A stretch of 64,000 nucleotides of DNA, taken from Gemmatimonadales bacterium. Lineage in GTDB: Bacteria; Gemmatimonadota; Gemmatimonadetes; Gemmatimonadales; GWC2-71-9. Positions 45,974 to 64,000 of the stretch are shown here, in pieces. The stretch spans positions 1,833-65,832 of the forward strand of contig DATBSO010000043.1 of the NCBI GenBank assembly GCA_036559745.1, read 5' to 3'. Below the pieces are notes generated by a model that was not told where the DNA came from, did not search any database, and saw only the letters and a program-made list of their open reading frames with translations. The translations under genes and the position numbers were made by a program. Positions within the stretch are counted from its first letter, which is position 1. Each line of letters opens with the position of its first letter.

Positions 45974-45976
45974 CGA

Positions 45977-46312: not shown

Positions 46313-46827
46313 GGCTCTCGCGCTCCCATCAGTGCCAGCAGCCGAAGGCGTGTGATCTTGCGTTGCTCTTCGGCAGCTACTGCCAGCTCCCGCTCGGCGT
46401 TGTTTTCCAGTCGTGCCTGGATGTCCACCAGAAGCTCCTGCGCGTTCCGGCCCGCGGCACAGACGATATAGATCCGGCCGAAGCGGCGCTCGTACGTCTC
46501 GTTGGCTCGTACCATCGCCTCGCGCGCGGACGCGTCTGCGGCCGCGGCGGACTGTTCCCCCGCCGACCACTCTCGTGACGCCGCGCTCACCGCCGCCGCC
46601 GCTCTGCGCTCGCCGATCCGCGGATGGTGAGCAAACGCCTCATCCCAATCCGAGGGGCTCACCGTCCGCCACATCTCATCGGCGACCGTCAGCAGCTCCT
46701 CGAGGCTTCCGAACGGGCGTCGACCCACCATGGCGTCCACCCAGCGTGACGAGCCGCAACAGTCGCGAAGACGCTCCGCTGCCTCGGCTCGCGGGAGGGT
46801 GTTAAGCCGATCGAGCGTCAGCGTCAC
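46309..46827 (-). CDS. uraD: OHCU decarboxylase
   Basis: Motifs AFAHHPRIGE and RFGRIYIVCAAGR. The GTG start overlaps the allantoicase stop (GTGA), and the stop overlaps the uraH start (ATGA). Confidence 0.8.
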   Translation of the reverse strand: MTLTLDRLNTLPRAEAAERLRDCCGSSRWVDAMVGRRPFGSLEELLTVADEMWRTVSPSDWDEAFAHHPRIGERRAAAAVSAASREWSAGEQSAAAADASAREAMVRANETYERRFGRIYIVCAAGRNAQELLVDIQARLENNAERELAVAAEEQRKITRLRLLALMGAREP

Positions 46828-49153: not shown

Positions 49154-49158
49154 CTCGG

Positions 49159-49989: not shown

Positions 49990-50411
49990 GATGCCGCGTG
50001 GATCGCCCGGTAGATCGCTTCGTAGCCGGTGCAGCGGCAGAGGTTGCCGGCAAGGCCCTGACGGATCTTCGCCAGGCTCGGCCGGCGACCCAGCGTCGTG
50101 GCCGTCAGGATCATGCCCGGGGTGCAGATGCCGCACTGCGCCCCGACCTCGTCCATGAAGGCGCGCTGGAGCGGATGCTCGGCGCCCAGCCCTTCGATGG
50201 TGGTGACCTCTGTTCCTTCCACCTGGGCCACGGGAATGAGGCAGGAGCAGACGGCTTCGCCATCCACGAGAACGGTGCAGGCGCCGCACTCGCCTTCGCC
50301 ACAGCCCTCCTTGGTGCCGGTGAGCCCGCAGTCTTCCCGCAACACGTCCAGCAGCCGGGCCATCGGAGAGACTTTCAGCTCCACGTCTTGCTCGTTCAGC
50401 CTGAAGCGCAT
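49986..50411 (-). CDS. xanthine dehydrogenase-family [2Fe-2S] subunit
   Basis: Cluster motifs CGEGECGACTV and CGICTPG...CRCTGY. Confidence 0.9.
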   Translation of the reverse strand: MRFRLNEQDVELKVSPMARLLDVLREDCGLTGTKEGCGEGECGACTVLVDGEAVCSCLIPVAQVEGTEVTTIEGLGAEHPLQRAFMDEVGAQCGICTPGMILTATTLGRRPSLAKIRQGLAGNLCRCTGYEAIYRAIHAAS

Positions 50412-52507
50412 GCCGCCTCTCGGATGGTTTCGGGGATGGCCGGGATCGCGCGCACGTCCAGGCCGAGATGGCGGATGGCGTTGATCACGGCGGGTGCCGG
50501 TCCGTCGATCGGCAGCTCGCCCAGACCCTTCGCGCCGAACGGTCCACCCGCGTACGGATGCTCGAGCATCACGACGTCGAGCTTGGGCGTATCCATCGTG
50601 GTCGGAATGATGTAGTTGGTGAGCTGGGCGTTGGCCATCACGCCGCCCTGCATCGCGACCCGCTCGAGGAGCGCATACCCCAGCCCTTGCGCGGTGCCGC
50701 CCTCGACTTGCCCACGGGCCAGCGCCGGATGGATGACCCTGCCGATCTCGTTGACGACAGTCACGCGCAGCGGCCGCACCTCCCAGGTATCGGGATCGAG
50801 CTCGACCTCGGCGACGTCGCAACCCCACGCGTATGCGGCGTACGCGTCCCCGCGATAGTTGACCTCATCCCACTCGATCCAGTCCGGTTGCTCGTACTGG
50901 CTGGTGACCGACAAGGGTCCGTGTCGCTGGTAGTACTCGATGGGCGTGAGGTCGCCCAGCTTCCGGCGGACCTCCTCCGCGGCGCGCTGAAGAATCCGTC
51001 CCACCACCATGCACGTGCGTGAAGCGACGGTCGGTCCGCTGTCCGGGACGATACTGGTGTCGGGAGTGGCCACCTCGATCTGCTCGTAGGGAACGCCGAG
51101 CGTGTCGGCGACGATCTGCGCGTGCATCGTCCGAGTCCCCTGGCCGATCTCCGTGCTCGACGTCAGCACCCGTGCTCCGGTCGGCGTGATCTCGACCGTG
51201 GCACGCGAGGCGAGCTTCAGCTCTCCGCTTCCGGTGAAGCCGGAGCCGTGCCAGTACATCGCCAGTCCGATGCCGCGTCCGGTCCCCGCGTACGCTTTCC
51301 GCTTCCGCCGGTAGCTCGACCGCCGCACGGCCGTGCGCAACACCTCGAGCGCGGCGCAGTCGTCGCCCAGCTTCTGGCCGGTGGCCGTCGTGTCTCCGGC
51401 GCGGAGCAGGTTGCGCTCGCGCAGCCGCACCGGATCGAGTCCGAGCGACTCCGCGATCCGCTCGAGATGGACTTCCACCGCGAATTGGGTCTGTGGCGCC
51501 CCGAAGCCTCGGAACGCGCCGTTGGGTGGCGTATTGGTGAACATCGCCCGCGCGGCGATGCGGACGTTGTCGCAGCGGTACGGCCCGCCGGCGTGAATGG
51601 ATCCGCGGGAAAGCACGACCGGCGACAGCGTGGTGTAGGCGCCCCCGTCGAGGATCACTTCGATATCCATCGCCACCAGGCGTCCGTCGCGGGTCAGCCC
51701 GGTGCGGTGGCGGACGATCGAGGGATGACGCTTCGTGGTGGCGAGCATGTCTTCTACCCGATCATAGACCAGCTTGACCGGCCGGCACGCCTTGAGTGCG
51801 AGCAACGCCGCGTGCGCCGCTATACCGGAGGGATACTCTTCCTTGCCTCCGAACCCGCCACCGGTCTCCGTCTGCACGACGCGCACGCTCGACACCGTGT
51901 CGCCGAGGACGACCGCAAGCGCCCGGTGGGCATAGAAGGGGCACTGAATGGAGCCGTAGACCGTGATCCCGCCATCCTCCGGGACGGCGATCACGCCTTG
52001 CGGCTCGATGTACACGTGCTCCTGGTGTCCGGTGCGGTAGGTGCCTTCGACGATATGATCGGCGGCCGAGAAACCCGCGGTGACATCGCCCTTCTCGATG
52101 AGAATGGTCTTGAAGGCGGTGGGCGACTGCTCCGGATCGAAGATCGGAGTGCCCGGCTGCTCGTCGAGCCCGACCGTGGCACCGAGCAGCGCTTCGCGAC
52201 TCTCGTGCGCCAGCAGCAGCACCGGCTCCGCGGCGTGGCGAATCTCCCGCTCGACCAGACACGGCTGATCGTCCGCGATCAAGGCGACGACGTTGCGGCC
52301 CGGAATGTCGCGGTGGTCTACTACCGTGAAACCGGCGGGGTCGAAGTCGAGGCGGACGCCGGCGACCTGGCCGCAGGCGACGGTGGTACGGATGGTCCGA
52401 CCATGGAGCATGCCCGGAAAGGTGAGATCGTCGGCATAGCGCGCCTGCCCTGTCGCCTTGCCGATGCCATCCTTCCGGGAGACGCTCCGACCCACGGCGT
52501 TGGTCAT
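50396..52507 (-). CDS. xanthine dehydrogenase-family molybdopterin-binding subunit
   Basis: Motifs GGGFGGKE, FRGFGAPQ and a C-terminal GLGELP. First gene of the operon. Confidence 0.9.
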   Translation of the reverse strand: MTNAVGRSVSRKDGIGKATGQARYADDLTFPGMLHGRTIRTTVACGQVAGVRLDFDPAGFTVVDHRDIPGRNVVALIADDQPCLVEREIRHAAEPVLLLAHESREALLGATVGLDEQPGTPIFDPEQSPTAFKTILIEKGDVTAGFSAADHIVEGTYRTGHQEHVYIEPQGVIAVPEDGGITVYGSIQCPFYAHRALAVVLGDTVSSVRVVQTETGGGFGGKEEYPSGIAAHAALLALKACRPVKLVYDRVEDMLATTKRHPSIVRHRTGLTRDGRLVAMDIEVILDGGAYTTLSPVVLSRGSIHAGGPYRCDNVRIAARAMFTNTPPNGAFRGFGAPQTQFAVEVHLERIAESLGLDPVRLRERNLLRAGDTTATGQKLGDDCAALEVLRTAVRRSSYRRKRKAYAGTGRGIGLAMYWHGSGFTGSGELKLASRATVEITPTGARVLTSSTEIGQGTRTMHAQIVADTLGVPYEQIEVATPDTSIVPDSGPTVASRTCMVVGRILQRAAEEVRRKLGDLTPIEYYQRHGPLSVTSQYEQPDWIEWDEVNYRGDAYAAYAWGCDVAEVELDPDTWEVRPLRVTVVNEIGRVIHPALARGQVEGGTAQGLGYALLERVAMQGGVMANAQLTNYIIPTTMDTPKLDVVMLEHPYAGGPFGAKGLGELPIDGPAPAVINAIRHLGLDVRAIPAIPETIREAACASG

Positions 52508-52709
52508 GCGGCGTCCTCGGTCGAGCGATAACGGCAGGGGATGCTGTCAGGAGCGGTCGTAAGCAATTTGAGACGCATGGAGCGGATCAACAAGACGAAG
52601 CATGCAGCGGTCAGGACGTCCCCTCCGGTGCCCTCTCCAGGGTCGTCGAGGCAATGGCGGAACTTCTCGACGGTCAGGGAGGTGCAGGCAGAGCGCTCTC
52701 CATGATTGC

Positions 52710-52822
52710 CGCTAACGACTCGCGCATCAGCCCCGACGGCTAGCATGCAGCGCGGTCGTGGACTTCAACACCGCGTTTGCGACAGGTCCGGCGCGCCCCC
52801 ACGGCGTCGGGATGAAGTAGGT
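52710..52822 (-). repeat. attC-like repeat Z (degenerate)
   Basis: The plus strand reads CGCTAAC-GACTC-GCGCATCAGC ... GTCGGGATGAAGTAGGT. The distal box lacks one T, as in repeat A. Confidence 0.5.
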
Positions 52823-52912
52823 AACGTGGGGCGAGTGAGCCGTGATCGAGCGCGGGGGTGGGGCGTTGGACGCGATTGGAGTGACAGCCACCGGCGATGT
52901 GCGCCTGCGTCC

Positions 52913-53057
52913 GCCTAGCGACCGGCGCATCAGCTGCAGGCGACTCGCTCACGCATGCATCAACTTTACGGTTCGCCGCCCGCCATCGGCAGGTGGCGAC
53001 GCTGGGAACTCATCACTGGGTTGCGCCTTCAATTGGCGTCAGACCATGCAGGTAGGC
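52913..53057 (-). repeat. attC-like repeat A (type 2, degenerate distal arm overlapping the cytochrome c 3' end)
   Basis: GCCTAGC-GACCG-GCGCATCAGCTGCAGGCGACTCGCTCACGCATGC ... CCATCGG ... GTCAGACCATGCAGGTAGGC. Confidence 0.6.
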
Positions 53058-53987
53058 ATACATTGCCTTGAGATCCTCGTCCCTTGCGAAGGTTGAAACT
53101 GCCTTCCACGGCATCCCCTCACCCAGCGTGTGGTTGTAGGGATCTACGCCCGTGCGCAGGGTGTGGATGAAGTCCTCAACACTCCACTTCGGGAGGATCA
53201 GGGTGAGGTTTGGCCCACCGGGGGGACCGGGCCCACCGCTCTTGCGGCCGGCGAGGTTCTCGCCGTGGCATAGCGGGCAACCCAGAATCGAGACTAGGTA
53301 CTTGCCGTAGTCGGCCGAGACGCCTTCAGCTGGCGCGACGATGGGTTGCGTGATGGACGGCTGCGCGCTGGTGGGGGCGAGGCCCGCCCCGATGAAGACC
53401 GCGCCGATGACGTTTAGTTTCGTCGTCGGCGTATTTGGCTCTACTGCTGGCTGCGCGCGCAAATAAGCGACGATGGCCTGGACGTCGACGTCGCTCAGAT
53501 TACGAAAGACCTCCGAGGGCATGATGATCAGGGGACGGCCGGTCTTATGCACACCCTCGCGGATGGCGCGGATGATTTCGCCATCCGACCAATCCTTGAT
53601 CTCGCCGGCAGGCGTAAGGTTGGAGGCATAAAGGGTGCCGACCGGTGGGCCGCCTTTCGAAAAGTTCTGTCCGACTAAGGGGGCTTTCCCGGTCGGCGAA
53701 TGACAGAGAGGACAATACGCACCAAATCTTGCGCCCCGCGCCACTTGGTCGGGGGTGCCGGCTACCTTTATGTCGGTGGCTGTCGGCCGGTGGGGTGGGA
53801 AGTTGAGCCTGTAAAAGCCGACCAGTGCGACGCCGATCATCAGGGAACAGGCCAAGGTCAACAAGCTCGAAAGGACAAGACCAACCCACTTCGCAACCCG
53901 GTTCCTCGCCCGCCTGGCGCGTATGGCGAGCCAAGTCCCCAACGTGGTGAGAGAGAACAGAGCGGTCACGCCGAGGGTGTCGAACAT
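53013..53987 (-). CDS. membrane-anchored di-haem cytochrome c (cassette ORF)
   Basis: Two N-terminal TM helices and two CxxCH motifs (CPLCH twice). A strong SD, GGGAGGA, precedes the ATG at 53987. Confidence 0.8.
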   Translation of the reverse strand: MFDTLGVTALFSLTTLGTWLAIRARRARNRVAKWVGLVLSSLLTLACSLMIGVALVGFYRLNFPPHRPTATDIKVAGTPDQVARGARFGAYCPLCHSPTGKAPLVGQNFSKGGPPVGTLYASNLTPAGEIKDWSDGEIIRAIREGVHKTGRPLIIMPSEVFRNLSDVDVQAIVAYLRAQPAVEPNTPTTKLNVIGAVFIGAGLAPTSAQPSITQPIVAPAEGVSADYGKYLVSILGCPLCHGENLAGRKSGGPGPPGGPNLTLILPKWSVEDFIHTLRTGVDPYNHTLGEGMPWKAVSTFARDEDLKAMYAYLHGLTPIEGATQ

Positions 53988-54104
53988 GATCCTCCCTCTA
54001 CCCTGGAATCGTGGGCATCCATGGCACTGGCTCGCGGGACGCAGGTCTTCTGCCGGCGGCCTCCGACCTGTGAAACAGCGCAGTTGCTCAAAGCGCTAAG
54101 TGCC

Positions 54105-54133
54105 GCCTAACGACCTGCGCGGCTGCGTTAGAA
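54105..54133 (-). repeat. mini attC remnant B (internal-deletion derivative)
   Basis: GCCTAAC-GACCT-GCGCGGCTGC-GTTAGAA. Both terminal boxes and parts of both arms are retained, but about 105 nt of the centre is missing. Confidence 0.5.
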
Positions 54134-54175
54134 CGGAGCAAGTCGGCGACGCCGAGGACCCGGCCTCTCAGCGGC

Positions 54176-54424
54176 CTATGCCTTCTTCTTCAGCATCCCG
54201 ACGATCAAGGGAACAAGGGCTCCCACCACTGCTGAGGCGCCAACTTCGGTAGCAGTGCCGCCGCCAAGTGCCCCGCCGGCCAGCTGTCCGCCTCCTAGGC
54301 CACCCAGAGCACCCAAAATTGTGTTGATCAGTGGGCCAAGGCTCTTGGCCTTATTGGCGAGCCCTGCGACGTTTCCGCCGACGGCACCTGAAATCAGCTG
54401 AATGAGCACGGTGGTCAGATCCAT
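54176..54424 (-). CDS. glycine-rich small membrane protein (hypothetical)
   Basis: MDLTTVLIQLISGAVGGNVAGL...GGLGGGQLAGGALGGG...LVPLIVGMLKKKA, with SD GGAGGAG upstream of the ATG at 54424. Confidence 0.55.
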   Translation of the reverse strand: MDLTTVLIQLISGAVGGNVAGLANKAKSLGPLINTILGALGGLGGGQLAGGALGGGTATEVGASAVVGALVPLIVGMLKKKA

Positions 54425-55089
54425 GGTCTCCTCCGGTCGCGGGGGGTATGAGAGAGGGACACAAGCGAAGACGTCCGCGGAAAGTGTGGGCGCAAGCGGC
54501 CGCCCGAGCGACAACCCAACGGCTTCCCGAAGCTCGCGCCCTCTGGTGGTGTGTCAGGCTGGTCCACGAGCACCATCCTTGCCATGTCGTTGTTGGTGAC
54601 ATCAGGGTTGGGCACAACGTACCAGCCGTCGGGGCCTTGGCGACTGGTCATCACTTCGAGCGTCTCGTGGTGCAGTCGCGCCACGCCGTAACGTGCTCGT
54701 AGTGTAAGGCGGTAGACGAAGTGCCATAGGCCCGCTGCCTCCTGGACCCCGCCAACTAATTCGCGCGATCGGCTCGGGGGCTCGTACTCCGCGCTGGCCG
54801 GGGGTTCCGAGTGCCGCGGCGCCAGCCAGCGCCGCAGCACCTCCTTCGGTGGCAGCGCATCAAGTTCCTCGGGCGAGCCCGCGCCGAACAGCGTGTCGAA
54901 GAGTTGCTGCGTCTCTGGCCGTTGAACGTCCTGATCCTTGACATAGCGTCGGAGGCGCTCGACCTCCTCCTCTCGAAAACGGGCCATGTCCAAGGGGTGG
55001 ACCAGAGCGACGAACCCGTCCCAGTCCTCTACTGCCAGCGAAGCGAATGCAGCGCGAACTGCGGCTTCTGGCGACGCGTAGCCAGCCAT
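54415..55089 (-). CDS. hypothetical protein
   Basis: ATG at 55089 is preceded by GGAG. The composition is coherent for the first ~180 aa, but the C-terminal tail looks low quality. Confidence 0.45.
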   Translation of the reverse strand: MAGYASPEAAVRAAFASLAVEDWDGFVALVHPLDMARFREEEVERLRRYVKDQDVQRPETQQLFDTLFGAGSPEELDALPPKEVLRRWLAPRHSEPPASAEYEPPSRSRELVGGVQEAAGLWHFVYRLTLRARYGVARLHHETLEVMTSRQGPDGWYVVPNPDVTNNDMARMVLVDQPDTPPEGASFGKPLGCRSGGRLRPHFPRTSSLVSLSHTPRDRRRPWI

Positions 55090-55129
55090 GGAGCACTCCG
55101 CAAGTGAAGAACCTGTTCGGTCCTTCTAG

Positions 55130-55484
55130 GGACTCCAGTCGAGCACCTTCTTCAACGAAGCCCACCAGTTTGGCAGTCTCCTCAACAACCACGTGACCGG
55201 GTAGTCCTGGTCAGCTGGGTTGAAAATACGACGTGATCGGTGCGCCAGGGAGGGATGTGGTCGAGGAGCTCGGCGGCGAGATCACCGTGGGGGTCGATGA
55301 CCCCGACTCCCTCGCCGGCCTCGAGGTCTTGGGTTATGAGATTGCGAAGGAGGGTACTCTTGCCGGTGCCGGTCTTGCCGACGAGGTACAGGTGGTGCCG
55401 GCGATCGCTACGGGAAAGGCCGAAGGGAGACTCTCCGCCCCAGCTATGTCGAAACCCCATGTAAATGTGGTGCTCTCTATCCAT
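55130..55484 (-). pseudogene. frameshifted, truncated N-terminal fragment of a TraD/VirD4-like (type IV secretion DNA-binding/coupling) P-loop ATPase
   Basis: HHLYLVGKTGTGKSTLLRNLITQDLEAGEGVGVIDPHGDLAAELLDHIPPWRTDHVV. A -1 shift near 55225 then restores the expected (Y)FNPADQDYPV continuation. The ORF ends about 100 aa in, versus more than 500 aa expected. Confidence 0.55.
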
Positions 55485-55607
55485 GTTCCCAACAAATCTC
55501 TACTGAACCCGAACCTTCCGGCTCGGTTCCTCTTGAGATTATACCGACCAACGGCGCTCACCTGGTTGGCGGTCAGCCCCCCATTGCATGCCGTCACGCC
55601 ATGGTGT

Positions 55608-55631
55608 ATACTGAACCACATGGTTCAGTAT
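55608..55631. promoter_or_regulatory. perfect inverted repeat ATACTGAACC-ACAT-GGTTCAGTAT, candidate ArsR operator
   Basis: Read directly. The palindrome is centred on the ATG (55620) of the ArsR-family gene. Confidence 0.55.
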
Positions 55632-55985
55632 TTCCCAAACCACTTCGATGCCTCGTTCGGCGCGCTCTCGGACGCCACCCGACGCGGCGTTCTGGAGCAA
55701 CTCGGGCGTGCGGACGCTTCGATCACGGCCCTTGCCGAGAGGTTCCACATGACCCTCACGGGCATGAAGAAACATGTAGGCGTCTTGGAGCAAGCGGGGC
55801 TCGTCACCACGGAGAAGGTCGGGCGCGTGCGAACCTGTAGGCTCGGCCGCCGCGGACTGCAAGAAGAGGCGGCATGGATCGAGAGGTACCGCCAGCTCTG
55901 GAGCGCACGCTTCGACGAGTTGGACAACGTTGTCGAGGAATTAACACGGAAGGAGAGAGTCGATGCACGAAAGAAGAGAACGTGA
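55620..55985 (+). CDS. ArsR/SmtB-family transcriptional regulator
   Basis: LSDATRRGVLEQLGRADASITALAERFHMTLTGMKKHVGVLEQAGLVTTEKVGRVRTCRL is a typical ArsR wHTH. Start at the internal ATG 55620. Confidence 0.85.
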   Translation: MVQYFPNHFDASFGALSDATRRGVLEQLGRADASITALAERFHMTLTGMKKHVGVLEQAGLVTTEKVGRVRTCRLGRRGLQEEAAWIERYRQLWSARFDELDNVVEELTRKERVDARKKRT

Positions 55986-56472
55986 GGCCCCCCCCACGAA
56001 GAACGACACGACGGTGGAACGGAAGTCCGAGCTCGAACTCGTCGTCACACGAACCGTAAACGGTCCTGCGCGCCTCGTGTTCGAGGCGTGGACCAAGGCA
56101 GAGCTATTCAGGAGGTGGTGGGTACCAAAGTCGTATGGGCTGACCCTGCTTTCCTGCGAAATGGATGTTCGCGTTGGGGGGCAGTATCGCTTGGTGTTTC
56201 CCCACGAAGATTCGACGATGGAGTTCTTCGGCACGTACCTCGAAGTGACACCGCACTCACGCCTCGTGTGGACCAATGAGGAAGGAGACGACGGCACGAC
56301 CATCACCACGGTGACCTTCGAGGAAAACGCCGGCAAGACGTTGTTGGTCGTGCACGATCTCTATCCCTCGAAGGAAGCGCTTGACTCCGGATCGATGGGC
56401 GCGATGCCCGAGGCGCTCGACCAACTCGACGAGCTTCTCGCCAGCCTGGGATCAAGCAAGGAGACCAGATGA
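55963..56472 (+). CDS. SRPBCC-superfamily protein (Aha1/AHSA1-like)
   Basis: [28 protein letters not shown] ... GGQYRLVF ... [27 protein letters not shown] is present. This is the usual partner of small ArsR regulators. Confidence 0.8.
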
Positions 56473-57362
56473 CGCAGCCAATCCATCACACAAACGCTTC
56501 CGGGCGGCGTTCAGCAGTGCGGAAGACAACTTTCCTTTTAATGACGCTCGTTACGACTGACGTGTCGGCGCAGCAGAAGTCAACGACGGGCTACGCGCCA
56601 GTCAATGGACTCAACATGTACTACGAAGTCCACGGCGCCGGCAAACCGGTGGTGTTGCTTCACGGCGCGTTCATGACCATCACCAACAACTGGGCCGGGT
56701 GGATCAGCGAGCTCTCCAAAACACGGAAAGTCATTGCCGTCGAAATGCAGGGTCACGGCCGCACGGCGGACGTCCCACGAGCTATCACCTACGAAAACCT
56801 CGCCGCCGACGTAGCCGCACTGCTCAATTATCTCAAGATCCCGCGAGCGGACCTTATCGGCTACAGCATGGGCGGAGCCGTGGCGATGCAGTGTGCGATC
56901 CGCCATCCGGACAAAGTGCGAAGGGCAGTCATCATTTCGTCCACGTTCCGCAGTGACGGCATGATCGCGGAAGGGCTCGAAGCTATCCAGAAACTCACGG
57001 CGGACGCTTTCACAGGCTCGCCCATTGAGGCCGAGTACCAGAAGCTGAGTCCGACTCCGGACGACTTTCCGAACTTCGTCCAGCGAATCGTCGCCACGGC
57101 CTCGAACGGGTACGACTTCGGAGCCGACAAGCTTAAGGCCACCACGACGCCCATGTTCTTCATTCACGGCGACGCCGACGGCGTGCGGCTCGCGCACGTC
57201 GCGGAAATGTTTCGCCTAAAGGGTGGCGAGATCCACGGCGACATGAAGCCGCGCTCCGCATCGCGATTGGCCATCTTGCCCAACACCACTCACGTGACAT
57301 TGATGCAGCGCATGCCCATCATCGTCCCAATGGTGAACGACTTTCTCGACGCAAAGCCGTAG
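56469..57362 (+). CDS. alpha/beta hydrolase
   Basis: VVLLHGAF, nucleophile elbow GYSMGG, and IHGDADG. The start overlaps the SRPBCC stop (ATGA). Confidence 0.85.
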
Positions 57363-57407
57363 CCATGCTGCGGTCCCGTGGCAGAAGTGGTCCCGTCTTT
57401 CTGTACG

Positions 57408-57547
57408 GTCTGAGCGGGGGGAAGTCAGCTGCAGGCGATCATACTCGCGCCCGCACAAACTGTCGTTCCTTCGCGCCCTCGACGGAGCGTACCGCCCGAG
57501 CGGAGCCTTGCGCGCTTCGGCCTGTCGGCTGCATTTGCGGGTTAGGC
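57408..57547 (-). repeat. attC-like repeat C (type 1, proximal box degenerate GTCTGAG)
   Basis: ...AAGTCAGCTGCAGGCGATCATACTCGCGCCCGCAC ... CCTGTCGGCTGCATTTGCGGGTTAGGC. Confidence 0.65.
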
Positions 57548-57565
57548 CGCGGCCGGCTCCGGTCT

Positions 57566-57766
57566 TCACGCGCGGCGAGGCGTAGCTCGTATCAGCCTCA
57601 GTGCCCAGACGCTGAGTCCACCAGCCAGAAGGAGGCCGAGCCAGGAGGCCCAAAGGGGCACTGCGTAGCCCGCGAGGTCCACCGGCCAGTGACGGAAGAG
57701 CCGAAGCAGATGACCTACGGCAATCAGCCCAAACAGCGTGCCAGAGATCTGTAAGTAGGTTCGCAT
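57566..57766 (-). CDS. small 2-TM membrane protein (cassette ORF)
   Basis: MRTYLQISGTLFGLIAVGHLLRLF...LWASWLGLLLAGGLSVWAL, with SD GAGGAG upstream of the ATG at 57766. Confidence 0.5.
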   Translation of the reverse strand: MRTYLQISGTLFGLIAVGHLLRLFRHWPVDLAGYAVPLWASWLGLLLAGGLSVWALRLIRATPRRA

Positions 57767-57820
57767 AGCAATCTCCTCTACTCGCCCAATACCACTGCGC
57801 ACTGCACGTCGCTGGGTGCG

Positions 57821-57963
57821 GACTAACGAAGTGCAAATCAGCTGCAGGCGACCATACTGACGCCCACACGAATCAACGCTTCCATTGCTTGGCCGCCGGG
57901 AGCGCAGTGCCCGCTAGGAGGGCCGACCGACGTCGGCCTGTCGGCTCCATTTGCCGGTTAGGC
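57821..57963 (-). repeat. attC-like repeat D (type 1)
   Basis: GACTAAC-GAAGT-GCAAATCAGCTGCAGGCGACCATACTGACGCCCACAC ... CCTGTCGGCTCCATTTGCCGGTTAGGC. The VOC stop codon TAA lies inside the distal box. Confidence 0.7.
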
Positions 57964-58458
57964 GGCGCCCTGCGCGACCCGCGACCACTCAGCCCACGAG
58001 ACCACCCCCAGCTCAGGCCTCGGCGGCCCTGGAAGACGCGCCACCAGCTCCACGACGTGAGCGTCAGGGTCGTCAAAGTAGATCGACGCAGCCGGTATGA
58101 AGCCAAACACCGAGGGCACCGTAGTCCGTTGCTGAAAGAAGTCGCGACACTCGGTGCCTCGCTGGTCGAGCCGTGCTACCAGTGCCGTGAGCTCCGGCAG
58201 TCCCACCTCGAACGCAAAATGCTGCGTGTGAATGCGATGGCGGTCACGCTCCCACAAGCCCAGCAGGGCATGGCCCTGACCACCGACCCAGAGGAAGGCG
58301 AAGCGGCGTGCACCGCGACTGTGCGCATCGACGCGCGCGGCATCCACCTCTCGCCGTAGGGCGAGCGCGAGCCCCAGCTCCGTCCCGTAGAACTCCACGG
58401 AGCGGTCCAGGTCCATGACGTCCACATGAGTTTCGAACACGCCGCGGATCACGCCCAT
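57958..58458 (-). CDS. VOC/glyoxalase-family protein (cassette ORF)
   Basis: THVDVMDLDRSVEFYGTELGL ... HFAFEV ... YFDDPDAHVVEL are the VOC beta-alpha-beta-beta-beta signatures. Confidence 0.8.
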   Translation of the reverse strand: MGVIRGVFETHVDVMDLDRSVEFYGTELGLALALRREVDAARVDAHSRGARRFAFLWVGGQGHALLGLWERDRHRIHTQHFAFEVGLPELTALVARLDQRGTECRDFFQQRTTVPSVFGFIPAASIYFDDPDAHVVELVARLPGPPRPELGVVSWAEWSRVAQGAA

Positions 58459-58523
58459 TCCTGGTTGCGAGATGCTCTGCCCCGACAGACAAGTTCCGCG
58501 ATTACGTGAGCCTCGTGGTGTCG

Positions 58524-58661
58524 GCTTAACGAAATGCGCATCAGCGGCGGGCGATCATGGTAGCGCCCGCACTACCTACGTGCCGCTGACCTCCAACGGG
58601 GGTCAGCGCCCGAATGGAGTTCGGGACGGTCCCGCCCGTCGGCTGCATGCGCTTGTTAGAC
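58524..58661 (-). repeat. attC-like repeat E (type 1)
   Basis: GCTTAAC-GAAAT-GCGCATCAGCGGCGGGCGATCATGGTAGCGCCCGCAC ... CCGTCGGCTGCATGCGCTTGTTAGAC. The internal hairpin is GCTGACC/GGTCAGC. Confidence 0.7.
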
Positions 58662-58675
58662 TGCGTCCTGCACGA

Positions 58676-58906
58676 TCACCGAAAAAGGTGACCTAGCTCC
58701 CGCTTGAACTCCGCCTTCCGGGCCTCAGGAGTGCCGTCCTCCAGACCCTTGCACTTATGAGCTGCATGCGCGTCCCAGCCCTCCGGCCACATCGTGAACT
58801 CCTTCTCCATACAGGCTGGGCACAGCACACGCTTGTGTGCCAAGTCTGAGGGAGTGAGCACCGCGGCGTTCAGAATTGTGCCGTTTCTGCTGAGTTGCGG
58901 CTTCAT
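58676..58906 (-). CDS. small Cys/His-containing hypothetical protein (cassette ORF)
   Basis: 76 aa with CPAC ... HAAHKC spacing, possibly a zinc-binding knuckle. No family was recognised. Confidence 0.45.
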   Translation of the reverse strand: MKPQLSRNGTILNAAVLTPSDLAHKRVLCPACMEKEFTMWPEGWDAHAAHKCKGLEDGTPEARKAEFKRELGHLFR

Positions 58907-58940
58907 TCGGCGACTAGCCTCTCAGGGATCCTTTGGCGCT

Positions 58941-58968
58941 GTCTAACGCACCGCGCGCGATGTTCGCC
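58941..58968 (-). repeat. mini attC remnant K
   Basis: GTCTAAC-GCACC-GCGCGCGAT-GTTCGCC, starting 2 nt downstream of the DUF4440 gene stop. Same architecture as remnant B. Confidence 0.4.
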
Positions 58969-58969
58969 C

Positions 58970-59377
58970 TCAGGAGTCGGCGGCAGTCGCATGCGACCAC
59001 ACCACCTGCCATTGCATCCCGTGCCGCTCGTATAGATCGGTATGCCAATACCGCTGACGCGGAATGTGGCGGACCTGCACGATGATTTCGAGCTCTGACC
59101 GGTACCGGATCACCGCGACATTTCCGTAGAGGCGAACCGCGATCGATTCAGGCTCCCAGTACAGGTAATGAATCTGCCCGGCGCTGATGCCACCTAGGTA
59201 CTGCTCTCTCGAGAGCGCCCCGCCCAGAGGGTTGATGAGTTGAAAGTCCTCGGAGTGCAGCTGTTCCGCTCGACCAACATCACCAGTGACCAGCGCATGG
59301 AGTCGCTCGCGCTCGGTCGAGCGGAGGAGCTCCATGTCCCGATCCTCGGCAACCGGGGTCCGATCCGAGCTGGTCAT
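58970..59377 (-). CDS. DUF4440/SnoaL-like (NTF2-fold) protein (cassette ORF)
   Basis: LHALVTGDVGRAEQLHSEDFQLINPLGGALSREQYL ... WHTDLYERHGMQWQVVWSHAT. SD GGGAGG is present. Confidence 0.75.
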   Translation of the reverse strand: MTSSDRTPVAEDRDMELLRSTERERLHALVTGDVGRAEQLHSEDFQLINPLGGALSREQYLGGISAGQIHYLYWEPESIAVRLYGNVAVIRYRSELEIIVQVRHIPRQRYWHTDLYERHGMQWQVVWSHATAADS

Positions 59378-59409
59378 GATGGCACCTCCCGGAACTCAAT
59401 AGCGAGGCT

Positions 59410-59533
59410 GCCTAACCTGCAAATCAGCTGCAAGCGACTTGTGAGAACCTACGTTCCTTAGCGCGCCATCGGAGCGTCGTGTGACCAGGAGCCCAAACGC
59501 TTCGCGCTTGTCGGCTGCATGTGCGGGTTAGGC
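59410..59533 (-). repeat. attC-like repeat F (type 2)
   Basis: GCCTAAC-CTGCAAATCAGCTGCAAGCGACTTGTGAGAACCTACGTTCC ... CCATCGG ... GCGCTTGTCGGCTGCATGTGCGGGTTAGGC (124 nt, counted). Confidence 0.7.
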
Positions 59534-59946
59534 AGCACGCGCGACGAGCCCACCCGTTTTGCCGGCTCCACGCTTTGCGCGCTGAGGCGTACGGCACCGG
59601 GTGACGAGCGCTGGGCAGCCCTTGACCATCAATGCACTGCCGTGAAAGGACAGCGGCAACACCTCCAAGCTGGAGGACCATTGCTTGAAATGAAAGCGCC
59701 CCCAGGAACGGCCGTGAATCGCTTGAGTCGGGGCGAGATGAATGGCACAGAGCGCGGATCATAGGTACCCTGGGTGGCTCTCCGAGGTGATCCGCGAGGT
59801 CCATGAGGATCTCTTAACGGCCGACTCACGGTCCGTTCGTGCATTGGGGTGCAATTTCTCTGTGTCCGCCACAAGCCTACGAAAGCCGGTGCTGCTATTT
59901 GGCTTGTGGGTGGCGCTCTGACGTACTTTCCCGGATCCGAGGACGT

Positions 59947-60999
59947 ATGAGATACCATTTCCTATTGCCCGGCCTGCTGACACTCGGCGCGTTTGGGCTG
60001 GCTGGCTGCGGTGAAGAGACCACCCAGCCGAACACGGCGGTGGATCAACCGAGCGCCCCACAGCTCGCCGTCACCTCGAACACTTGGCTCGACCGGCGCG
60101 AAATGCCTTTTGACCTAATATCCCAGGCCGCTGCTGTTGTGCCCAACGCAGCAGGCCAATCCATGCTCTACGCCATTGGGGGGCAAAAGCCAGACCGCGC
60201 GCCCGAGGGGGACGTGCCGATGGGCGAGGTGCGGGCCTACAATGTTGCGACCGACACCTGGACCAGCAAACGGGACATGCCTGCTGCCCGCTATGGGATG
60301 AGCGTCGGGGTCATTGGCGGGAAGATCTATGTAGCCGGAGGGTTTGCCAACGGGTACCGACCGAGCGCGTCGGTCTTCGTCTATGATCCCGCGTCCAATG
60401 CCTGGACCCGGAAGCGAGACATGCCGGAAGCTAGCCGCGGTGGCCCGACGGGAGTCATCGAAGGCAAACTCTACGTGGTCACGTTCAATCGGATCCTGGA
60501 AGCGGTCCCCCACTTCTTCCGGTACAATCCGACCACGGATTCCTGGACCAAGCTCCCGAGCCCTACCAATTACCCCCTGCTGGGAGGGGGCGGGGGCGTA
60601 ATCAACAAGAAGTTGTATCTCATCGGTGCCGACCGGCAGTCCAATCAGTCCAAGGTACTGGAGTACGACCCGATCACCAACAAGTGGACGAAGAAGCAAT
60701 CGTGGCCTGGCCCGTCCTGTCTGCCCTACTCCTGTTACCTCGAGGGTCCGACGGTGGTCATGCTCTCTCACCTGTACGTGTTCGGCAGGGAGTGGAGGTA
60801 TGGGGGGTGGAGGGACTCTTTTGGCATCTTCATCTATGACCCGGTCAGCAATACCTGGGCAAGAAAGCCTGGGGTCATCCCGTTGGCCTACCCGAACGTA
60901 AGCGACTTTGCGGCAGCCCGCGTGTCTCTGAATGGAGAACCTCGGGTCGAGCTGATCGGGGGCTACCGTCCCTACAACAATGTGCAGTACATCCCATAG
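59947..60999 (+). CDS. Kelch-repeat beta-propeller lipoprotein (reverse-oriented relative to the array)
   Basis: Lipobox GLAGC at the start MRYHFLLPGLLTLGAFGLAGC. Repeated units follow the pattern ...GGKIYVAGG...VYDPASNAWT... Confidence 0.75.
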   Translation: MRYHFLLPGLLTLGAFGLAGCGEETTQPNTAVDQPSAPQLAVTSNTWLDRREMPFDLISQAAAVVPNAAGQSMLYAIGGQKPDRAPEGDVPMGEVRAYNVATDTWTSKRDMPAARYGMSVGVIGGKIYVAGGFANGYRPSASVFVYDPASNAWTRKRDMPEASRGGPTGVIEGKLYVVTFNRILEAVPHFFRYNPTTDSWTKLPSPTNYPLLGGGGGVINKKLYLIGADRQSNQSKVLEYDPITNKWTKKQSWPGPSCLPYSCYLEGPTVVMLSHLYVFGREWRYGGWRDSFGIFIYDPVSNTWARKPGVIPLAYPNVSDFAAARVSLNGEPRVELIGGYRPYNNVQYIP

Positions 61000-61049
61000 C
61001 GTGCGCATGGGCTGTTCGTGTGGGCCTGGTCATGACGCCGTTTGCCCAG

Positions 61050-61075
61050 GCCTAGCGACTCGCACGATACTGCTC
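61050..61075 (-). repeat. isolated attC arm remnant G-prime
   Basis: GCCTAGC-GACTC-GCACGATACTGC matches only the proximal arm. No partner arm is present, and it lies 57 nt from repeat G. Confidence 0.35.
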
Positions 61076-61131
61076 CCGACTGTCGTCTCCTACCCATGGG
61101 GCTCCACGAATCGGCGGGGTGGTGGCGTGCC

Positions 61132-61271
61132 GCCTAACGACCTGCGCATCAGCTGCAGGCGATCATGGTTCCGCCCGCACAATTCTACGTGGCACTGATC
61201 GCCACCGGCGATCAGTGCCCGCACGAAAGGTTCCGCCCCATCGGCCTGTCGGCTGCATGCGCGGGTTAGGC
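61132..61271 (-). repeat. attC-like repeat G (type 1, best-preserved; 140 nt)
   Basis: GCCTAAC-GACCT-GCGCATCAGCTGCAGGCGATCATGGTTCCGCCCGCAC ... GCACTGATCGCC-ACC-GGCGATCAGTGC (internal 12-bp hairpin) ... CCTGTCGGCTGCATGCGCGGGTTAGGC. The methyltransferase stop TAA lies inside the distal box. Confidence 0.75.
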
Positions 61272-61916
61272 GGCAGCGGCTCGGGTGTAGACGCCTGCGT
61301 ACCAGACCGCGCTCTGGGCTTGAAAGATCCGGTCGAATCCAGCGGCTCGCACAAGCGCCTCCATTCGATCCGGCGAATGCACAAACACCCTGAACTGGCT
61401 TCCGCGGAGTTCTCGCACCGCATTCTGCAGCGTGGTCACGGCACGGATGCCCCAGCGCGCGCGGGGGTAGCTGTACGCGAAGAGTCGCTGCGCCTTCCCC
61501 AAGGCGATCTGCAGCAGGCCCTCGTACTCAGGATCACAACAGACCACCCGATCCATCGTGACCACATCGACGACCGGCAAACTGTCAGCCGCGTGGCGCA
61601 CTTCGGCGTTGATGAACTCGACCCGTCCCGTGTGACCTCGGCGCTCGGCCTCCTCGGCGGCTGCCTGCAGAAACGCGCCGGAGGGCTCCACCTCCCACGC
61701 GCGGCTCACTCCGCGAGCCAACAGCTCGTGATGGAGCACGCCGACCCCCCCGCCGATGTCCAAGAGCGTCGCTGCGGCTGGAAGGCTCGCCTCCAGCCCG
61801 CGGAGCATGAGCGCAGTCGCCGGGAGCGGTCCTCGCCGACGGTAGCGGCGGAGATCGGCTGCGGCCCGTTTACGGCCAAACTGCTGGTCGAGCACCGGGG
61901 CCCCACAGCAGTCCAT
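61266..61916 (-). CDS. class I SAM-dependent methyltransferase (cassette ORF)
   Basis: Motif I is LLDIGGGVGVLHHELL. Start at ATG 61916 with SD GGAGGG; the longer track ORF runs into attC H. Confidence 0.8.
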   Translation of the reverse strand: MDCCGAPVLDQQFGRKRAAADLRRYRRRGPLPATALMLRGLEASLPAAATLLDIGGGVGVLHHELLARGVSRAWEVEPSGAFLQAAAEEAERRGHTGRVEFINAEVRHAADSLPVVDVVTMDRVVCCDPEYEGLLQIALGKAQRLFAYSYPRARWGIRAVTTLQNAVRELRGSQFRVFVHSPDRMEALVRAAGFDRIFQAQSAVWYAGVYTRAAAA

Positions 61917-61943
61917 TGCGCCCTCCACAATGCTGGTGCTGCC

Positions 61944-62081
61944 GCCTAACGCACTGCGCATTAGCTGCAAGCGCCTCGCTCGCTTATGCACTCCCCTACG
62001 TTCCTTTGAACTGCCATCGGAGCGTGGCAATCGACTGACCTGCGTGTGGACGTGCTTGTCGGCTGCATGAGCTTGTTAGGC
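61944..62081 (-). repeat. attC-like repeat H (type 2)
   Basis: GCCTAAC-GCACT-GCGCATTAGCTGCAAGCGCCTCGCTCGCTTATGC ... CTACGTTCC ... CCATCGG ... GTGCTTGTCGGCTGCATGAGCTTGTTAGGC. The DUF998 stop TAA lies inside the distal box. Confidence 0.75.
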
Positions 62082-62741
62082 GGCAGCTTGGGGCGCCGGT
62101 CTCTGGCCCGCTACGGCAGCACCGAAACCAAGCAGGCGTATAGCCATCATCTCTATCCAAACAAACAGCAACAGGAGCCAGAGCCGCTGCCGTAGCGGTC
62201 CCGACATTCCGATTCCGCTGAGTTCGGAGATCAGCCATGCGGAAGCTGGAAGCACGAGGGTTGCCGCCGCTAATGACCGCCAAGCAGGATCCCTTACCAT
62301 GCGAGGATAAAGCGTGAACGGGCCAAGTACCGCCGCCAGGAAAATCACATCGCCCAGGAGCAAGTGCATTCGATGGTGCAGGGATGGCGTCGCCGCTTGG
62401 CATCCAGGATCGCATGAGGCAAACGCCAGGGCAATGTAGGCCAAGCCGTACACGACGAGAACGCTCGGGCCGAGCCATCCTCCTACATCTGAACGGATTC
62501 CTCGGTGCACTGCCAGCGCAAATGCCACCATCAGGACGCCGTACGGGAGGAAACCCGCAAAGTTCATGATCGTCGCACTAGGAGCATCGGTCGCACCCAG
62601 TTCGCTGATGGCGTTCTTGAGATGGTGGTACCCTGGGTACTTCAGGCTCGCAGCAATCGCGGCCGCCGCATACACAAAGGGCGCCACCATGCCGCATGCT
62701 GCGAGTAATACCGACCGACTCTGGGGAACGGTGCTGGCCAT
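62076..62741 (-). CDS. DUF998-like polytopic membrane protein (cassette ORF)
   Basis: About 6 TM helices (MASTVPQSRSVLLAACGMVAPFVYAAAAIAASLKYPGYHHLKNAISELG...). SD GGGAGG precedes the ATG at 62741. The family call is tentative. Confidence 0.6.
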   Translation of the reverse strand: MASTVPQSRSVLLAACGMVAPFVYAAAAIAASLKYPGYHHLKNAISELGATDAPSATIMNFAGFLPYGVLMVAFALAVHRGIRSDVGGWLGPSVLVVYGLAYIALAFASCDPGCQAATPSLHHRMHLLLGDVIFLAAVLGPFTLYPRMVRDPAWRSLAAATLVLPASAWLISELSGIGMSGPLRQRLWLLLLFVWIEMMAIRLLGFGAAVAGQRPAPQAAA

Positions 62742-62762
62742 AGCAGCCTCCCGGGTGCTTCC

Positions 62763-62900
62763 GCCTAACGACTTGCGCATCATCTGCAAGCGACTCGCTC
62801 GCGCATGCAGCAACCCTACGTTCCGCCGCCGCCATCGGCGGGTGGCGGCGCTGGAAAACTCAACCCGGAAGCGCTTGTCGGCCGCATGCGCTCGTTAGGT
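62763..62900 (-). repeat. attC-like repeat I (type 2)
   Basis: GCCTAAC-GACTT-GCGCATCATCTGCAAGCGACTCGCTCGCGCATGC ... CTACGTTCC ... CCATCGG ... GCGCTTGTCGGCCGCATGCGCTCGTTAGGT. Confidence 0.75.
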
Positions 62901-62902
62901 AG

Positions 62903-63015
62903 CGCCGGATTAGGTTCCGAAATGAAGCTTCCACAACCGTTATCTCCACGACGTACGACCGCCACTATCGGAGTTCAGTTCGGACGCGCTTGTCGGCTGC
63001 ATACGCTGGTTAGGC
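62903..63015 (-). repeat. attC-like repeat J (type 2, one arm degenerate or lost)
   Basis: ...CGTACGACCGCCACTATCGG ... GCGCTTGTCGGCTGCATACGCTGGTTAGGC. It abuts repeat I with no ORF between them. Confidence 0.55.
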
Positions 63016-63038
63016 GGCAGTTGGCGCGTGGGCGAAAA

Positions 63039-63177
63039 CTACCATTCGTGCTCAAGAGTATTGATGAGCTTGCCGAACGGGTCATGGACGTAGAACCGCC
63101 TTATCGAGGCCGAGGATGTCTTGGTAGAACTGTTTGGCTACCGCGATATCGGCGGCCGCGATGGATGCGAGCCTGTC
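63039..63177 (-). pseudogene. internally deleted VOC/glyoxalase remnant
   Basis: My minus-strand translation in one frame is DRLASIAAADIAVAKQFYQDILGL (VOC N-terminus, no start codon). A second frame gives RFYVHDPFGKLINTLEHEW-stop (VOC C-terminus). The two frames are joined out of frame and about 90 aa are missing. Confidence 0.4.
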
Positions 63178-63184
63178 ACGTAGT

Positions 63185-64000
63185 CTACCTTCGGCCCGGC
63201 AGTTCGCGGAGCGCGCCGGTCAGTGTGTCCACGACTTGGTCGGCGTCGGCAAGCGAGAGCGGCATCGGGCCGCGGATCTTGATGACGTTGTGGTACGGCC
63301 CGTCGGTGCCTACGAGCACGCCGCGCTGGCGCATGCGATCGACCACGAAGGTCGCTTCGTCTGGTGCCGGCTCGAGGGTGTGCCGGTCACGCACGAGCTC
63401 GACGCCGAGGAAGAGGCCCGATCCACGCACATCCCCGACGATCTCGAACTCACCCATCAAGGGCGTCATTCCGCTCAACAACCGCTCGCCCACAAGGAGT
63501 GCGTTCCGCTGGAGCTCCTCGTCGAGGGTCACCTGCAGCGTCATGCGGCCGGCCACGCACGCAGCCGTGCTGCCGCCGAAGGTACTGAAGAACTCCATGC
63601 CGTTGTCGAAGCTGTCGGCGATGGCGCGCGTGGTGATCACCGCCCCCATCGGATAGCCATTGGCAATCGGCTTGCCGAGAACGACGATGTCGGGCGTGAC
63701 GTCGTGGGCCTGGAAGGCCCAGAAGTGGGTGCCCAGACGGCCGAAGCCCGTCTGGACCTCGTCCGCGATGCAGATCCCGCCGGCCGCGCGCACGCGCGAG
63801 TACACGTCGGCCAGGAAACCCGTCGGAAGCATGATCTGCCCGCCCACGCTCGGGCAGGTCTCGGCGATGTAGCCCGAGAGACGTCGTCCCTTCGCGGCGA
63901 GATCGTCAATCACCTCCCCGACCCGCGACGCGAACCACGAGCCGGGGTCAGCGTGAGCACCGCGCGCGCGGAAAACGTCGGGGAGCGGCGACCTGTGCAC
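63185..64000 (-). CDS. class-III (PLP) aminotransferase, N-terminus beyond the right edge
   Basis: ADEVQTGFGRLG and the PLP-lysine context DIVVLGKPIANGYPMGAV. It is similar in pattern to AGXT2 / beta-alanine-pyruvate or omega-aminotransferases. Confidence 0.85.
   Translation of the reverse strand: MHRSPLPDVFRARGAHADPGSWFASRVGEVIDDLAAKGRRLSGYIAETCPSVGGQIMLPTGFLADVYSRVRAAGGICIADEVQTGFGRLGTHFWAFQAHDVTPDIVVLGKPIANGYPMGAVITTRAIADSFDNGMEFFSTFGGSTAACVAGRMTLQVTLDEELQRNALLVGERLLSGMTPLMGEFEIVGDVRGSGLFLGVELVRDRHTLEPAPDEATFVVDRMRQRGVLVGTDGPYHNVIKIRGPMPLSLADADQVVDTLTGALRELPGRR

Follow-up and report, generated by a model that had tools for sequence, protein, structure and literature searches.

The stretch of DNA analysed here, called the window throughout, comprises 64 000 nucleotides (nt) of contig DATBSO010000043.1 (Gemmatimonadales bacterium, assembly GCA_036559745.1; contig positions 1833–65 832, forward strand), and all positions given below without a locus number are positions in the window. 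Between 52.7 and 63.0 kb it carries what is very probably a chromosomal array of integron gene cassettes, the host being a Gemmatimonadales bacterium from soil. The array is provisionally classed as a segment of the CALIN type (cluster of attC sites lacking integron integrase), as neither an integrase nor an attI site is present in the window. An earlier note, made from the letters alone, had proposed a sedentary chromosomal integron array at this place, and our analysis bears the proposal out. Direct support comes from the structure of the attC sites with its covariation, from their strand polarity, from the association of their family with integrases in relatives, from a G|TT recombination junction in one relative, and from turnover of cassettes at this chromosomal site; the cassette open reading frames (ORFs) are co-oriented and the sites clustered. 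The array is in partial decay: some five of its sites are degenerate, and two of its genes are reduced to remnants.

Anatomy and polarity of the attC sites

Read on the plus strand, the 5′ arm of a site consists of GCCTAAC, five unpaired nt, GCGCAT, CAGCTG and CAGG(CC), followed by a variable centre; the 3′ arm then runs (GG)CCTG, an extra T, CGGCTG, an extra C, ATGCGC, two unpaired nt and GTTAGGC. We examined this pairing in an alignment of 91 copies, seven from the window and 84 from other genomes, which also served to train a covariance model. Members of the alignment were chosen by arm similarity, so that conservation is inflated and covariation is not. The proposed partners pair in 94.6% of cells, versus 21–35% when they are slid by one to three columns. 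Compensatory double changes are found in 125 cells and at 10 of the 25 pairs, mainly two pairs of the first helix (GC to AU or UA) and three of the third (AU to GC, GC to AU). None of 500 shuffles reached the observed values of pairing and covariation.

The unpaired features are as regular as the helices. The proximal extrahelical base is C in all 91 copies and the distal one is T in 84; the spacer measures 5 nt on one arm in 87 copies and 2 nt on the other arm in every copy. The R boxes fit RYYYAAC/GTTRRRY, with GCCTAAC in 66 copies and GTTAGGC in 76, and the variants keep the pattern. In all this the repeats match the architecture of attC sites, which are built of an R box, an unpaired central spacer, an L box, a pair of extrahelical bases and a terminal structure that varies. 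The earlier note's description of attC-box termini, of the repeat lengths and of a central hairpin in copy 61132–61271 agreed with sequence and folding.

Since the extrahelical C and T lie on the 3′ arm of the plus strand, the plus strand is the recombining bottom strand; the sense (top) strand of the cassettes is therefore the minus strand, and the proximal end of the array is at 63.0 kb, its distal end at 52.7 kb. The ORFs point the same way. Of 63 spacers between adjacent attC sites, taken from 13 loci, 49 have their longest ORF on the predicted top strand; nine small ORFs of the window array are on the minus strand, and in three cassettes (VOC, methyltransferase and DUF998) the stop codon is the TAA inside the R′′ box (GCCTAAC). 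Site polarity likewise agrees with the side on which the integrase and attI are found in relatives. The cassette sense of the earlier note had to be corrected to the minus strand, with the start of the array at the right (63.0 kb).

Under another arm register, GCGCAT with a 5-nt bulge and then GCAG/CTGC, the extra bases would wrongly fall on the opposite arm and the ORFs would be inverted relative to attC polarity; this register was dropped. The idea of inverted cassettes is contradicted by shorter variants in two related loci (L052 and L103; related loci are numbered with the prefix L), where CAGCTG faces CAGCTG and fixes the register, in agreement with the covariation.

Most attC copies of 130–145 nt also have a centre motif close to CGCCCGCACAAACCTACGTTCC, conserved across many genomes (alignment columns about 40–70); an example in the window is at 61172–61192.

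Census of repeats in the window

A direct-repeat search and a motif scan of both strands, covering the whole 64 kb, found the arm motifs GCGCATCAGCTGCAGGCGA and CTTGTCGGCTGCATGCGC confined to 52.9–63.0 kb. The heptamers GCCTAAC and GTTAGGC are confined to the same tract with uniform polarity, always on the plus strand. The lone motif match outside it, at position 2384, has four mismatches and is a chance match.

We ran the covariance model unfiltered across all 64 kb. It scores the seven training copies of the window at 89–122 bits and recovers one full site outside the training set, 52913–53057, at 28.7 bits (E 5e-6). Three remnants give weak matches: 52710–52760 (E 0.39), 62961–63015 (E 0.63) and 54105–54133 (E 1.1, not significant). 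Two more, at about 58943–58967 and 61051–61075, were seen by eye only. Nothing convincing was found outside the 52.7–63.0 kb tract. The window holds eight solid attC sites and about five degenerate ones, so that the 13 attC-like repeats counted earlier stand as eight, the others being the three weak covariance matches and the two remnants read by eye. Full sites are 124–145 nt long. That the copies are clustered in a single orientation in one tract of about 10 kb, and not scattered, is upheld by both the motif scan and the covariance model. G+C is 0.624 in the array versus 0.669 in the rest of the window, and a scan of the window against Rfam at gathering thresholds gave no matches.

Integrases and candidate attI sites of related loci

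A scan for GTCGGCTGCATNNGCNNGTTAGGC with one genome per species returned at least 117 stretches; those among the matches listed are nearly all from metagenome-assembled genomes (MAGs) of Gemmatimonadales, often with four to nine copies per 8 kb in a single orientation. Using IntI1 as a tblastn query, which served as a probe only, we found full-length homologues of 51–56% identity in L013, L040, L052, L103 and L118, and partial or frameshifted ones in L018, L026, L037 and L056. The five full-length proteins score 414–437 bits against the NCBIfam model TIGR02249, ‘integron integrase’ (cut-off 265 bits), far above their XerC/XerD scores, and the IntI-specific segment (…KYPxAGxSWPWQWVFP…) and the catalytic motifs can be read in them by eye. 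Beside all five, the covariance model finds dense co-oriented attC arrays.

The layout of the integrase-bearing loci is constant: intI, then the array on its 3′ side with the cassettes in the sense of intI. Such an ‘inverted integrase’ layout is already known (PMC13323075, PMC3575428). Downstream of each intI stop codon stands a lone GTTAGGC box without attC arms, which we regard as a candidate attI from its sequence; the sequence directly before this box is conserved in L052, L040 and L103 (GTCCAyTTAyTAGTTAGGC, box included). L026 (6435–7142; contig CAVWRM010000001.1) has a 352-bp cassette twice in tandem, directly after the candidate attI. Identity between the copies starts exactly at G|TTAGGT, and one copy is preceded by attI, the other by the L′ box and spacer of an attC. 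This junction at G|TT is the signature of integron recombination at R′, and it fixes the polarity independently. The crossover at G|TT of R′ is seen in this related locus only, not among the window's own sites.

In the window, tblastn with IntI1 and the five Gemmatimonadales integrases found no integrase-like sequence in the 64 kb, in keeping with the earlier remark that no integrase was in view; there is no intI on the distal side or in the 0.8–0.98 kb or so that can be seen past the proximal edge. This edge (63016–63185) has no attI and no lone box of the GTCCAyTTAyTAGTTAGGC type; it consists of a decayed VOC cassette and then the stop codon of an aminotransferase gene. Any cognate intI would, by analogy with the relatives, lie to the right of the array on the minus strand and point into it.

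Several related contigs deserve mention in their own right. CAVWRM010000001.1 (3.7 Mb) has its intI at about 3.70 Mb and a second attC cluster at 1.04–1.056 Mb (L006, L115), so that an array linked to an integrase and a remote cluster lacking one are found together on a single contig. On CAVSPJ010000003.1 (about 131–189 kb) an apparently frameshifted IntI-like gene (L056 3276–4206) is followed by attC sites of one orientation in four sampled 8-kb blocks (L056, L069, L080, L066) spread over about 56 kb; these may belong to one very large chromosomal array, and the frameshifts in the L056 integrase could be long-read sequencing errors. Short putative IntI fragments lie in or beside arrays at L091 2515–2640 and L019 7907–7999 (both C-terminal) and at L017 7139–7267 (internal), which suggests past decay or rearrangement of integrases. 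Related attC arrays also appear to be present in a 1.47-Mb long-read contig of Acidobacteriota (seven matches, L044 1845–7164) and in contigs from bins of Competibacteraceae, Planctomycetota, Eisenbacteria, Anaerolineales and others (L070, L100 and L107 among the loci). L107, from an Acidobacteriaceae bin, and L045, from a Gemmatimonadales bin, appear to carry the same sequence, through either cross-phylum sharing or binning errors.

Turnover of cassettes at the chromosomal site

On the cassette strand the aminotransferase gene is upstream of the array. A metagenome scan with a fragment of this gene gave ten loci whose flank is 93–96% identical in DNA to that of the window. In all ten, the match to the window breaks off between 63103 and 63183, no more than about 80 nt from the stop codon. 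attC sites follow the flanking gene in eight of the ten, and the first 3 kb past it show at least six unrelated arrangements. The check for presence/absence polymorphism that had been suggested earlier thus came out positive: close relatives carry different cassettes at the same chromosomal site.

Single cassettes of the window recur elsewhere. Window 62983–63101 is 91–92% identical to the first cassette after the aminotransferase gene in L123, L124, L125 and L134. Window 55576–57422, which holds genes for an ArsR regulator, an AHSA1 protein and a hydrolase, is 94–96% identical to a Gemmatimonadales MAG locus (L111), and the homology stops at the R′ box of the next attC. A DUF998 homologue (72% identical) lies between two attC sites of the integrase-bearing L013 and a DUF4440 homologue (75%) in L128; homologues of the DUF4440 and Cys/His ORFs were seen in L043, L065 and L128. 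The attC centres around DUF998 in the window, L013 and L107 are 55–68% identical in all pairs, which is the background level.

On the other side of the flanking gene, L124 and L125 have two further attC sites 4–5 kb upstream of the aminotransferase gene. The orthologue in L124 encodes a 1053-aa fusion of APH, M23 and class III aminotransferase with attC sites on both sides (L124 6210–10816), and in both loci a gene for a flavin amine oxidase precedes the fusion, the pair sitting between attC sites. The upstream sites end after two copies, next to a LysR gene, and there is no integrase-like sequence within 10 kb upstream of the aminotransferase gene in either locus. More distant orthologous loci (about 71–77% identity) had no attC sites. 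We infer that in this sublineage attC clusters arose to either side of a core gene, which fits the proposed origins of CALINs: rearrangement, loss of the integrase or off-target insertion. The flanking genes had been described as looking like core genome; the aminotransferase gene has a core-like G+C of 0.68. In view of the upstream attC sites of L124 and L125 it may not be the boundary of the array.

Two nearly identical sequences overlap the window. A contig of JGI soil metagenome 3300035168 (L119) is 99.93% identical to 40396–57154 and ends inside the array, and Logan contig SRR11673299 (L001) is 99.8% identical to 61594–63211. The latter lacks 115 bp (about 62.87–62.99 kb) between 12-nt direct repeats, GCGCTTGTCGGC, in the R′′/L′′ arms of two neighbouring attC sites. 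Excision by an integrase was considered for this indel and rejected, as the end points are in the 12-nt repeats and not at the R′ crossover box; it is a population variant or a slippage event. Exact-protein look-ups returned only a 1.5-kb contig for the DUF998 protein and no record for the methyltransferase. A protein-database search for an extension to the right gave partial proteins only, at most 86% identical at near-full query coverage.

Cassette content of the array

Coordinates, strand and content of the array features are given below, one per line and from the distal end; training copies are those used for the covariance model.

52710–52760, minus: degenerate short attC at the distal end of the array, GCTAAC-GACTC-GCGCATCAGCC...GGCTAGCATGCAGCGC (E value above)
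52913–53057, minus: attC of the cytochrome c cassette, its R′′/L′′ arm overlapping the 3′ end of the ORF (28.7 bits)
53013–53987, minus: membrane-anchored di-haem cytochrome c, 324 aa (Pfam PF13442, PF00034; same gene called in L119)
54105–54133, minus: miniature attC remnant, R′ and R′′ boxes with the middle nearly all deleted; exact GCCTAAC box
54176–57407, no strand assigned: 3.3-kb multi-gene unit between two attC sites, with the following six ORFs (ORF list, Pfam)
54179–54424, minus: Gly-rich peptide with two transmembrane segments
54415–55089, minus: 224-aa ORF of unknown function
55182–55484, minus: truncated P-loop NTPase, 100 aa
55620–55985, plus: ArsR/HTH_20 protein (Pfam)
55963–56472, plus: AHSA1/SRPBCC protein (Pfam)
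56469–57362, plus: alpha/beta hydrolase (Pfam)
57408–57547, minus: attC with degenerate R′ box, GTCTGAG (92.8 bits, training copy)
57566–57766, minus: 66-aa peptide with two transmembrane segments (ORF translation; no Pfam match)
57821–57963, minus: attC (101.7 bits, training copy)
57958–58458, minus: VOC/glyoxalase-family cassette ORF, TAA stop in R′′ box (Pfam PF00903)
58524–58661, minus: attC (112.2 bits, training copy)
58676–59377, minus: two ORFs sharing one attC, with an attC remnant of about 25 nt between them (about 58943–58967, by eye)
58970–59377, minus: DUF4440 protein (Pfam PF14534)
58676–58906, minus: 76-aa Cys/His protein (ORF)
59410–59533, minus: attC of 124 nt with a short centre (89.3 bits, training copy; fold z-score −3.5)
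59947–60999, plus: Kelch-repeat lipoprotein gene, against the direction of the array (Pfam PF01344 and related families)
about 61051–61075: possible attC arm remnant beside the Kelch gene (by eye only)
61132–61271, minus: attC with perfect central hairpin (121.9 bits, training copy; DNA fold z-score about −6 on both strands)
61266–61916, minus: SAM-dependent methyltransferase cassette ORF, TAA stop in R′′ box (Pfam PF13649 and related)
61944–62081, minus: attC (95.6 bits, training copy)
62076–62741, minus: DUF998 membrane protein cassette ORF, TAA stop in R′′ box (Pfam PF06197)
62763–62900, minus: attC (94.1 bits, training copy)
62901–63015, minus: 115-bp ORF-less unit ending in a partial attC (62961–63015), only the R′′/L′′ arm recognisable
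63040–63180, minus: VOC-family gene remnant with an internal deletion, at the proximal edge (read by eye)
63185–64000, minus: 3′ part of a class III aminotransferase gene, stop at 63185, running off the window (Pfam PF00202; G+C 0.68)

Followed along the minus strand, the aminotransferase stop is succeeded by the VOC remnant, the partial attC, an ORF-less attC, DUF998 with its attC and the methyltransferase with its attC. The Kelch unit with its attC is next, then DUF4440, an attC remnant, the Cys/His miniprotein and an attC. VOC and the two-transmembrane peptide follow, each with an attC, and then the 3.3-kb unit and the miniature attC; di-haem cytochrome c with its attC and the short terminal attC close the distal end.

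For cytochrome c, VOC, DUF4440, the methyltransferase and DUF998, Pfam confirmed the calls of the earlier note. The statement that each unit holds one small ORF did not survive: the unit at 54.1–57.4 kb is 3.3 kb long with six ORFs, including a plus-strand ArsR–AHSA1–hydrolase operon, that at 59.5–61.1 kb holds the reverse-oriented Kelch lipoprotein gene, and the units at 62.9–63.0 kb are without an ORF. In consensus scans for sigma-70 promoters and terminators, sites were no more frequent than in shuffled sequence. PADLOC gave only P-loop-level and methyltransferase-level similarities among the cassette proteins.

Of a HerA/TraD/FtsK-like P-loop NTPase, the ORF at 55182–55484 retains no more than the Walker-A region (best PADLOC match mad8, E 3e-9); within the 3.3-kb unit it probably represents a gene fragment.

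Proposed mechanism and alternative explanations

As a single strand, the plus strand of a site would fold so that GCCTAAC and GTTAGGC pair as a 7-bp R box. Inward from this box would come the unpaired spacer, with 5 nt in the 5′ arm and 2 nt in the 3′ arm, a 6-bp helix of GCGCAT with ATGCGC, the extrahelical C, a second 6-bp helix of CAGCTG with CGGCTG, the extrahelical T, a further 4–6 bp and the variable centre. According to the accepted model of integron recombination, an integron integrase whose gene lies elsewhere in the genome would bind this folded bottom (plus) strand and cut the 5′ box between its last A and the C (GCCTAA|C; top strand, G|TTAGGC), and cutting would lead to excision, insertion and reshuffling of cassettes. 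Expression would presumably come from read-through out of the co-oriented upstream aminotransferase gene or from promoters inside cassettes.

A number of findings weigh against reading the region as a cassette array of this kind. Integrase and attI are both absent from the window. Seven of the eight strong covariance matches were copies on which the model had been trained, and some five of the 13 sites have degenerated. Simple cassettes do not typically comprise several genes or a gene in reverse orientation, as two of the units here do. The sole structural variant seen for the window array, the 115-bp indel, lies away from the expected crossover box.

Three other explanations were weighed. 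GC-rich imperfect palindromes between genes, with inverted repeats as terminal heptamers, are also what repetitive extragenic palindromes (REPs, or the bacterial interspersed mosaic elements built from them) and miniature inverted-repeat transposable elements (MITEs) look like, and such elements might merely resemble attC. This is highly improbable here: the other 53 kb of the window have no copies, the copies on long contigs cluster in strict single-orientation arrays next to integron integrases, conservation extends to the asymmetry of the spacer and to the two bulged bases on one side, a cassette duplication in a relative has its junction exactly at G|TT, and neither target-site duplications nor a transposase were seen. 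The window might instead show part of a complete integron with integrase and attI just beyond 64000, the amine oxidase/aminotransferase unit being a large insert or a cassette inside the array. Related complete integrons have their integrase on the very side in question and, in the orientation of the window, on the minus strand, and the attC sites upstream of the aminotransferase gene in L124 and L125 indicate an array that continues past the gene. We consider this explanation quite unlikely, as these upstream sites stop after two copies beside the LysR gene, the 10 kb upstream of the aminotransferase gene in the same loci are without integrase-like sequence, and the proximal edge of the window array is a decayed cassette, not an attI.

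A fossil array is somewhat unlikely. Here no integrase in the genome would recombine the sites any longer, the array would simply be decaying, and the cassette differences among relatives would predate the loss of the integrase. The degenerate or miniature attC remnants (about five), the VOC remnant and truncated P-loop NTPase, the fused two-ORF units and the lack of an integrase in view all point that way, as do apparently frameshifted integrase genes and integrase fragments in related arrays. Yet pairing is complete at eight sites, which also retain both extrahelical bases and intact R boxes; the six or more cassette arrangements among relatives with a 93–96% identical flank argue for recent turnover; and the 3.7-Mb contig with an integrase-linked array and a distant cluster makes an integrase acting in trans plausible. 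We keep to a partly decayed cassette array, probably of the CALIN type.

Comparison with known integrons

The array resembles the Vibrio cholerae repeat (VCR) superintegron and the chromosomal integrons of Xanthomonas and Pseudomonas in its long (about 100–145 nt), lineage-similar attC sites. As in other sedentary chromosomal arrays, the cassettes are many, small, mostly uncharacterised and co-oriented, without evident promoters, and the array is chromosomal, of lower G+C than its host and variable in content between close relatives. It differs from them in its host phylum, Gemmatimonadota, and in lineage-specific arms (GCGCAT-CAGCTG / CGGCTG-C-ATGCGC) with a 5/2-nt spacer. Moreover, intI is co-oriented with the cassettes in the related complete elements, the window segment has no integrase or attI, and no toxin–antitoxin cassettes were seen in the window's 10 kb. 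To integrons with an inverted integrase (Boucher et al.), to whose clade the Gemmatimonadales integrases may belong, the likeness is one of layout, and the layout is that of related Gemmatimonadales loci, not of the window.

The attC of aadA7, from a class 1 mobile integron, is a reference for the folded bottom-strand substrate; it is about 60 nt long and has T-CGGCTT-G, a 5/6-nt spacer, G as proximal extrahelical base and its crossover at G|TT of R′. Comparison with this site is a lead and not a test: the sites described here are alike in R box, spacer, L box and G|TT crossover and in having two extrahelical bases 6 bp apart on the 3′ arm (here T-CGGCTG-C). On the same footing, the differences are a length of 100–145 nt, C as the proximal base and a 2/5-nt spacer.

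As set out in PMC8618304, CALINs consist of two or more attC sites and their cassettes without an intI in the vicinity, and have been proposed to arise by loss of intI, rearrangement or off-target insertion. For the vicinity, IntegronFinder takes a few kb. Bearing on the last of these are the attG sites of Loot et al. 2024, as cited in PMC13323075. These origins fit the decayed proximal edge of the window array and the attC sites that flank a core-like gene to either side in relatives; the absence of intI applies to the window and to two relatives (L124 and L125).

Gemmatimonadota are already on record as hosts of integrons (PMC8618304), and our full-text literature search found no detailed description of integron elements of this phylum. 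The locus is a well-formed but ordinary integron array, distinctive in the lineage-specific attC consensus (5/2-nt spacer, C and T bulges, centre motif), and it leaves the general understanding of integrons unchanged. Its value is that of a clean, structurally annotated cassette array from a phylum listed among integron hosts in reviews. The lineage-specific attC consensus, the strand polarity, the candidate attI and the integrase-bearing reference loci can be reused, for instance in assigning soil cassette amplicons to a lineage or in choosing a non-proteobacterial IntI/attC pair for recombination work.

A wider proposal is put forward tentatively, and may well be wrong: that soil Gemmatimonadales possess very large, actively turning-over integrons with one highly conserved, lineage-specific attC family and an inverted intI, whose arrays, the window segment among them, have become fragmented and dispersed around core genes. 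Such systems would include one array of at least 55 kb and have attC relatives in long Acidobacteriota contigs, and the lineage would then be a major uncharacterised source of the ‘unknown’ cassettes in soil surveys.

Genes downstream of the array

The terminal attC (52760–52710) sits about 200 nt upstream of a xanthine dehydrogenase gene. Directly downstream of the array, on the minus strand, is a complete-looking cluster for urate/purine catabolism (40396–52507, from the gene table of L119), with genes for xanthine dehydrogenase subunits, an amidohydrolase, allantoicase, OHCU decarboxylase, a transthyretin-like HIU hydrolase and uricase.

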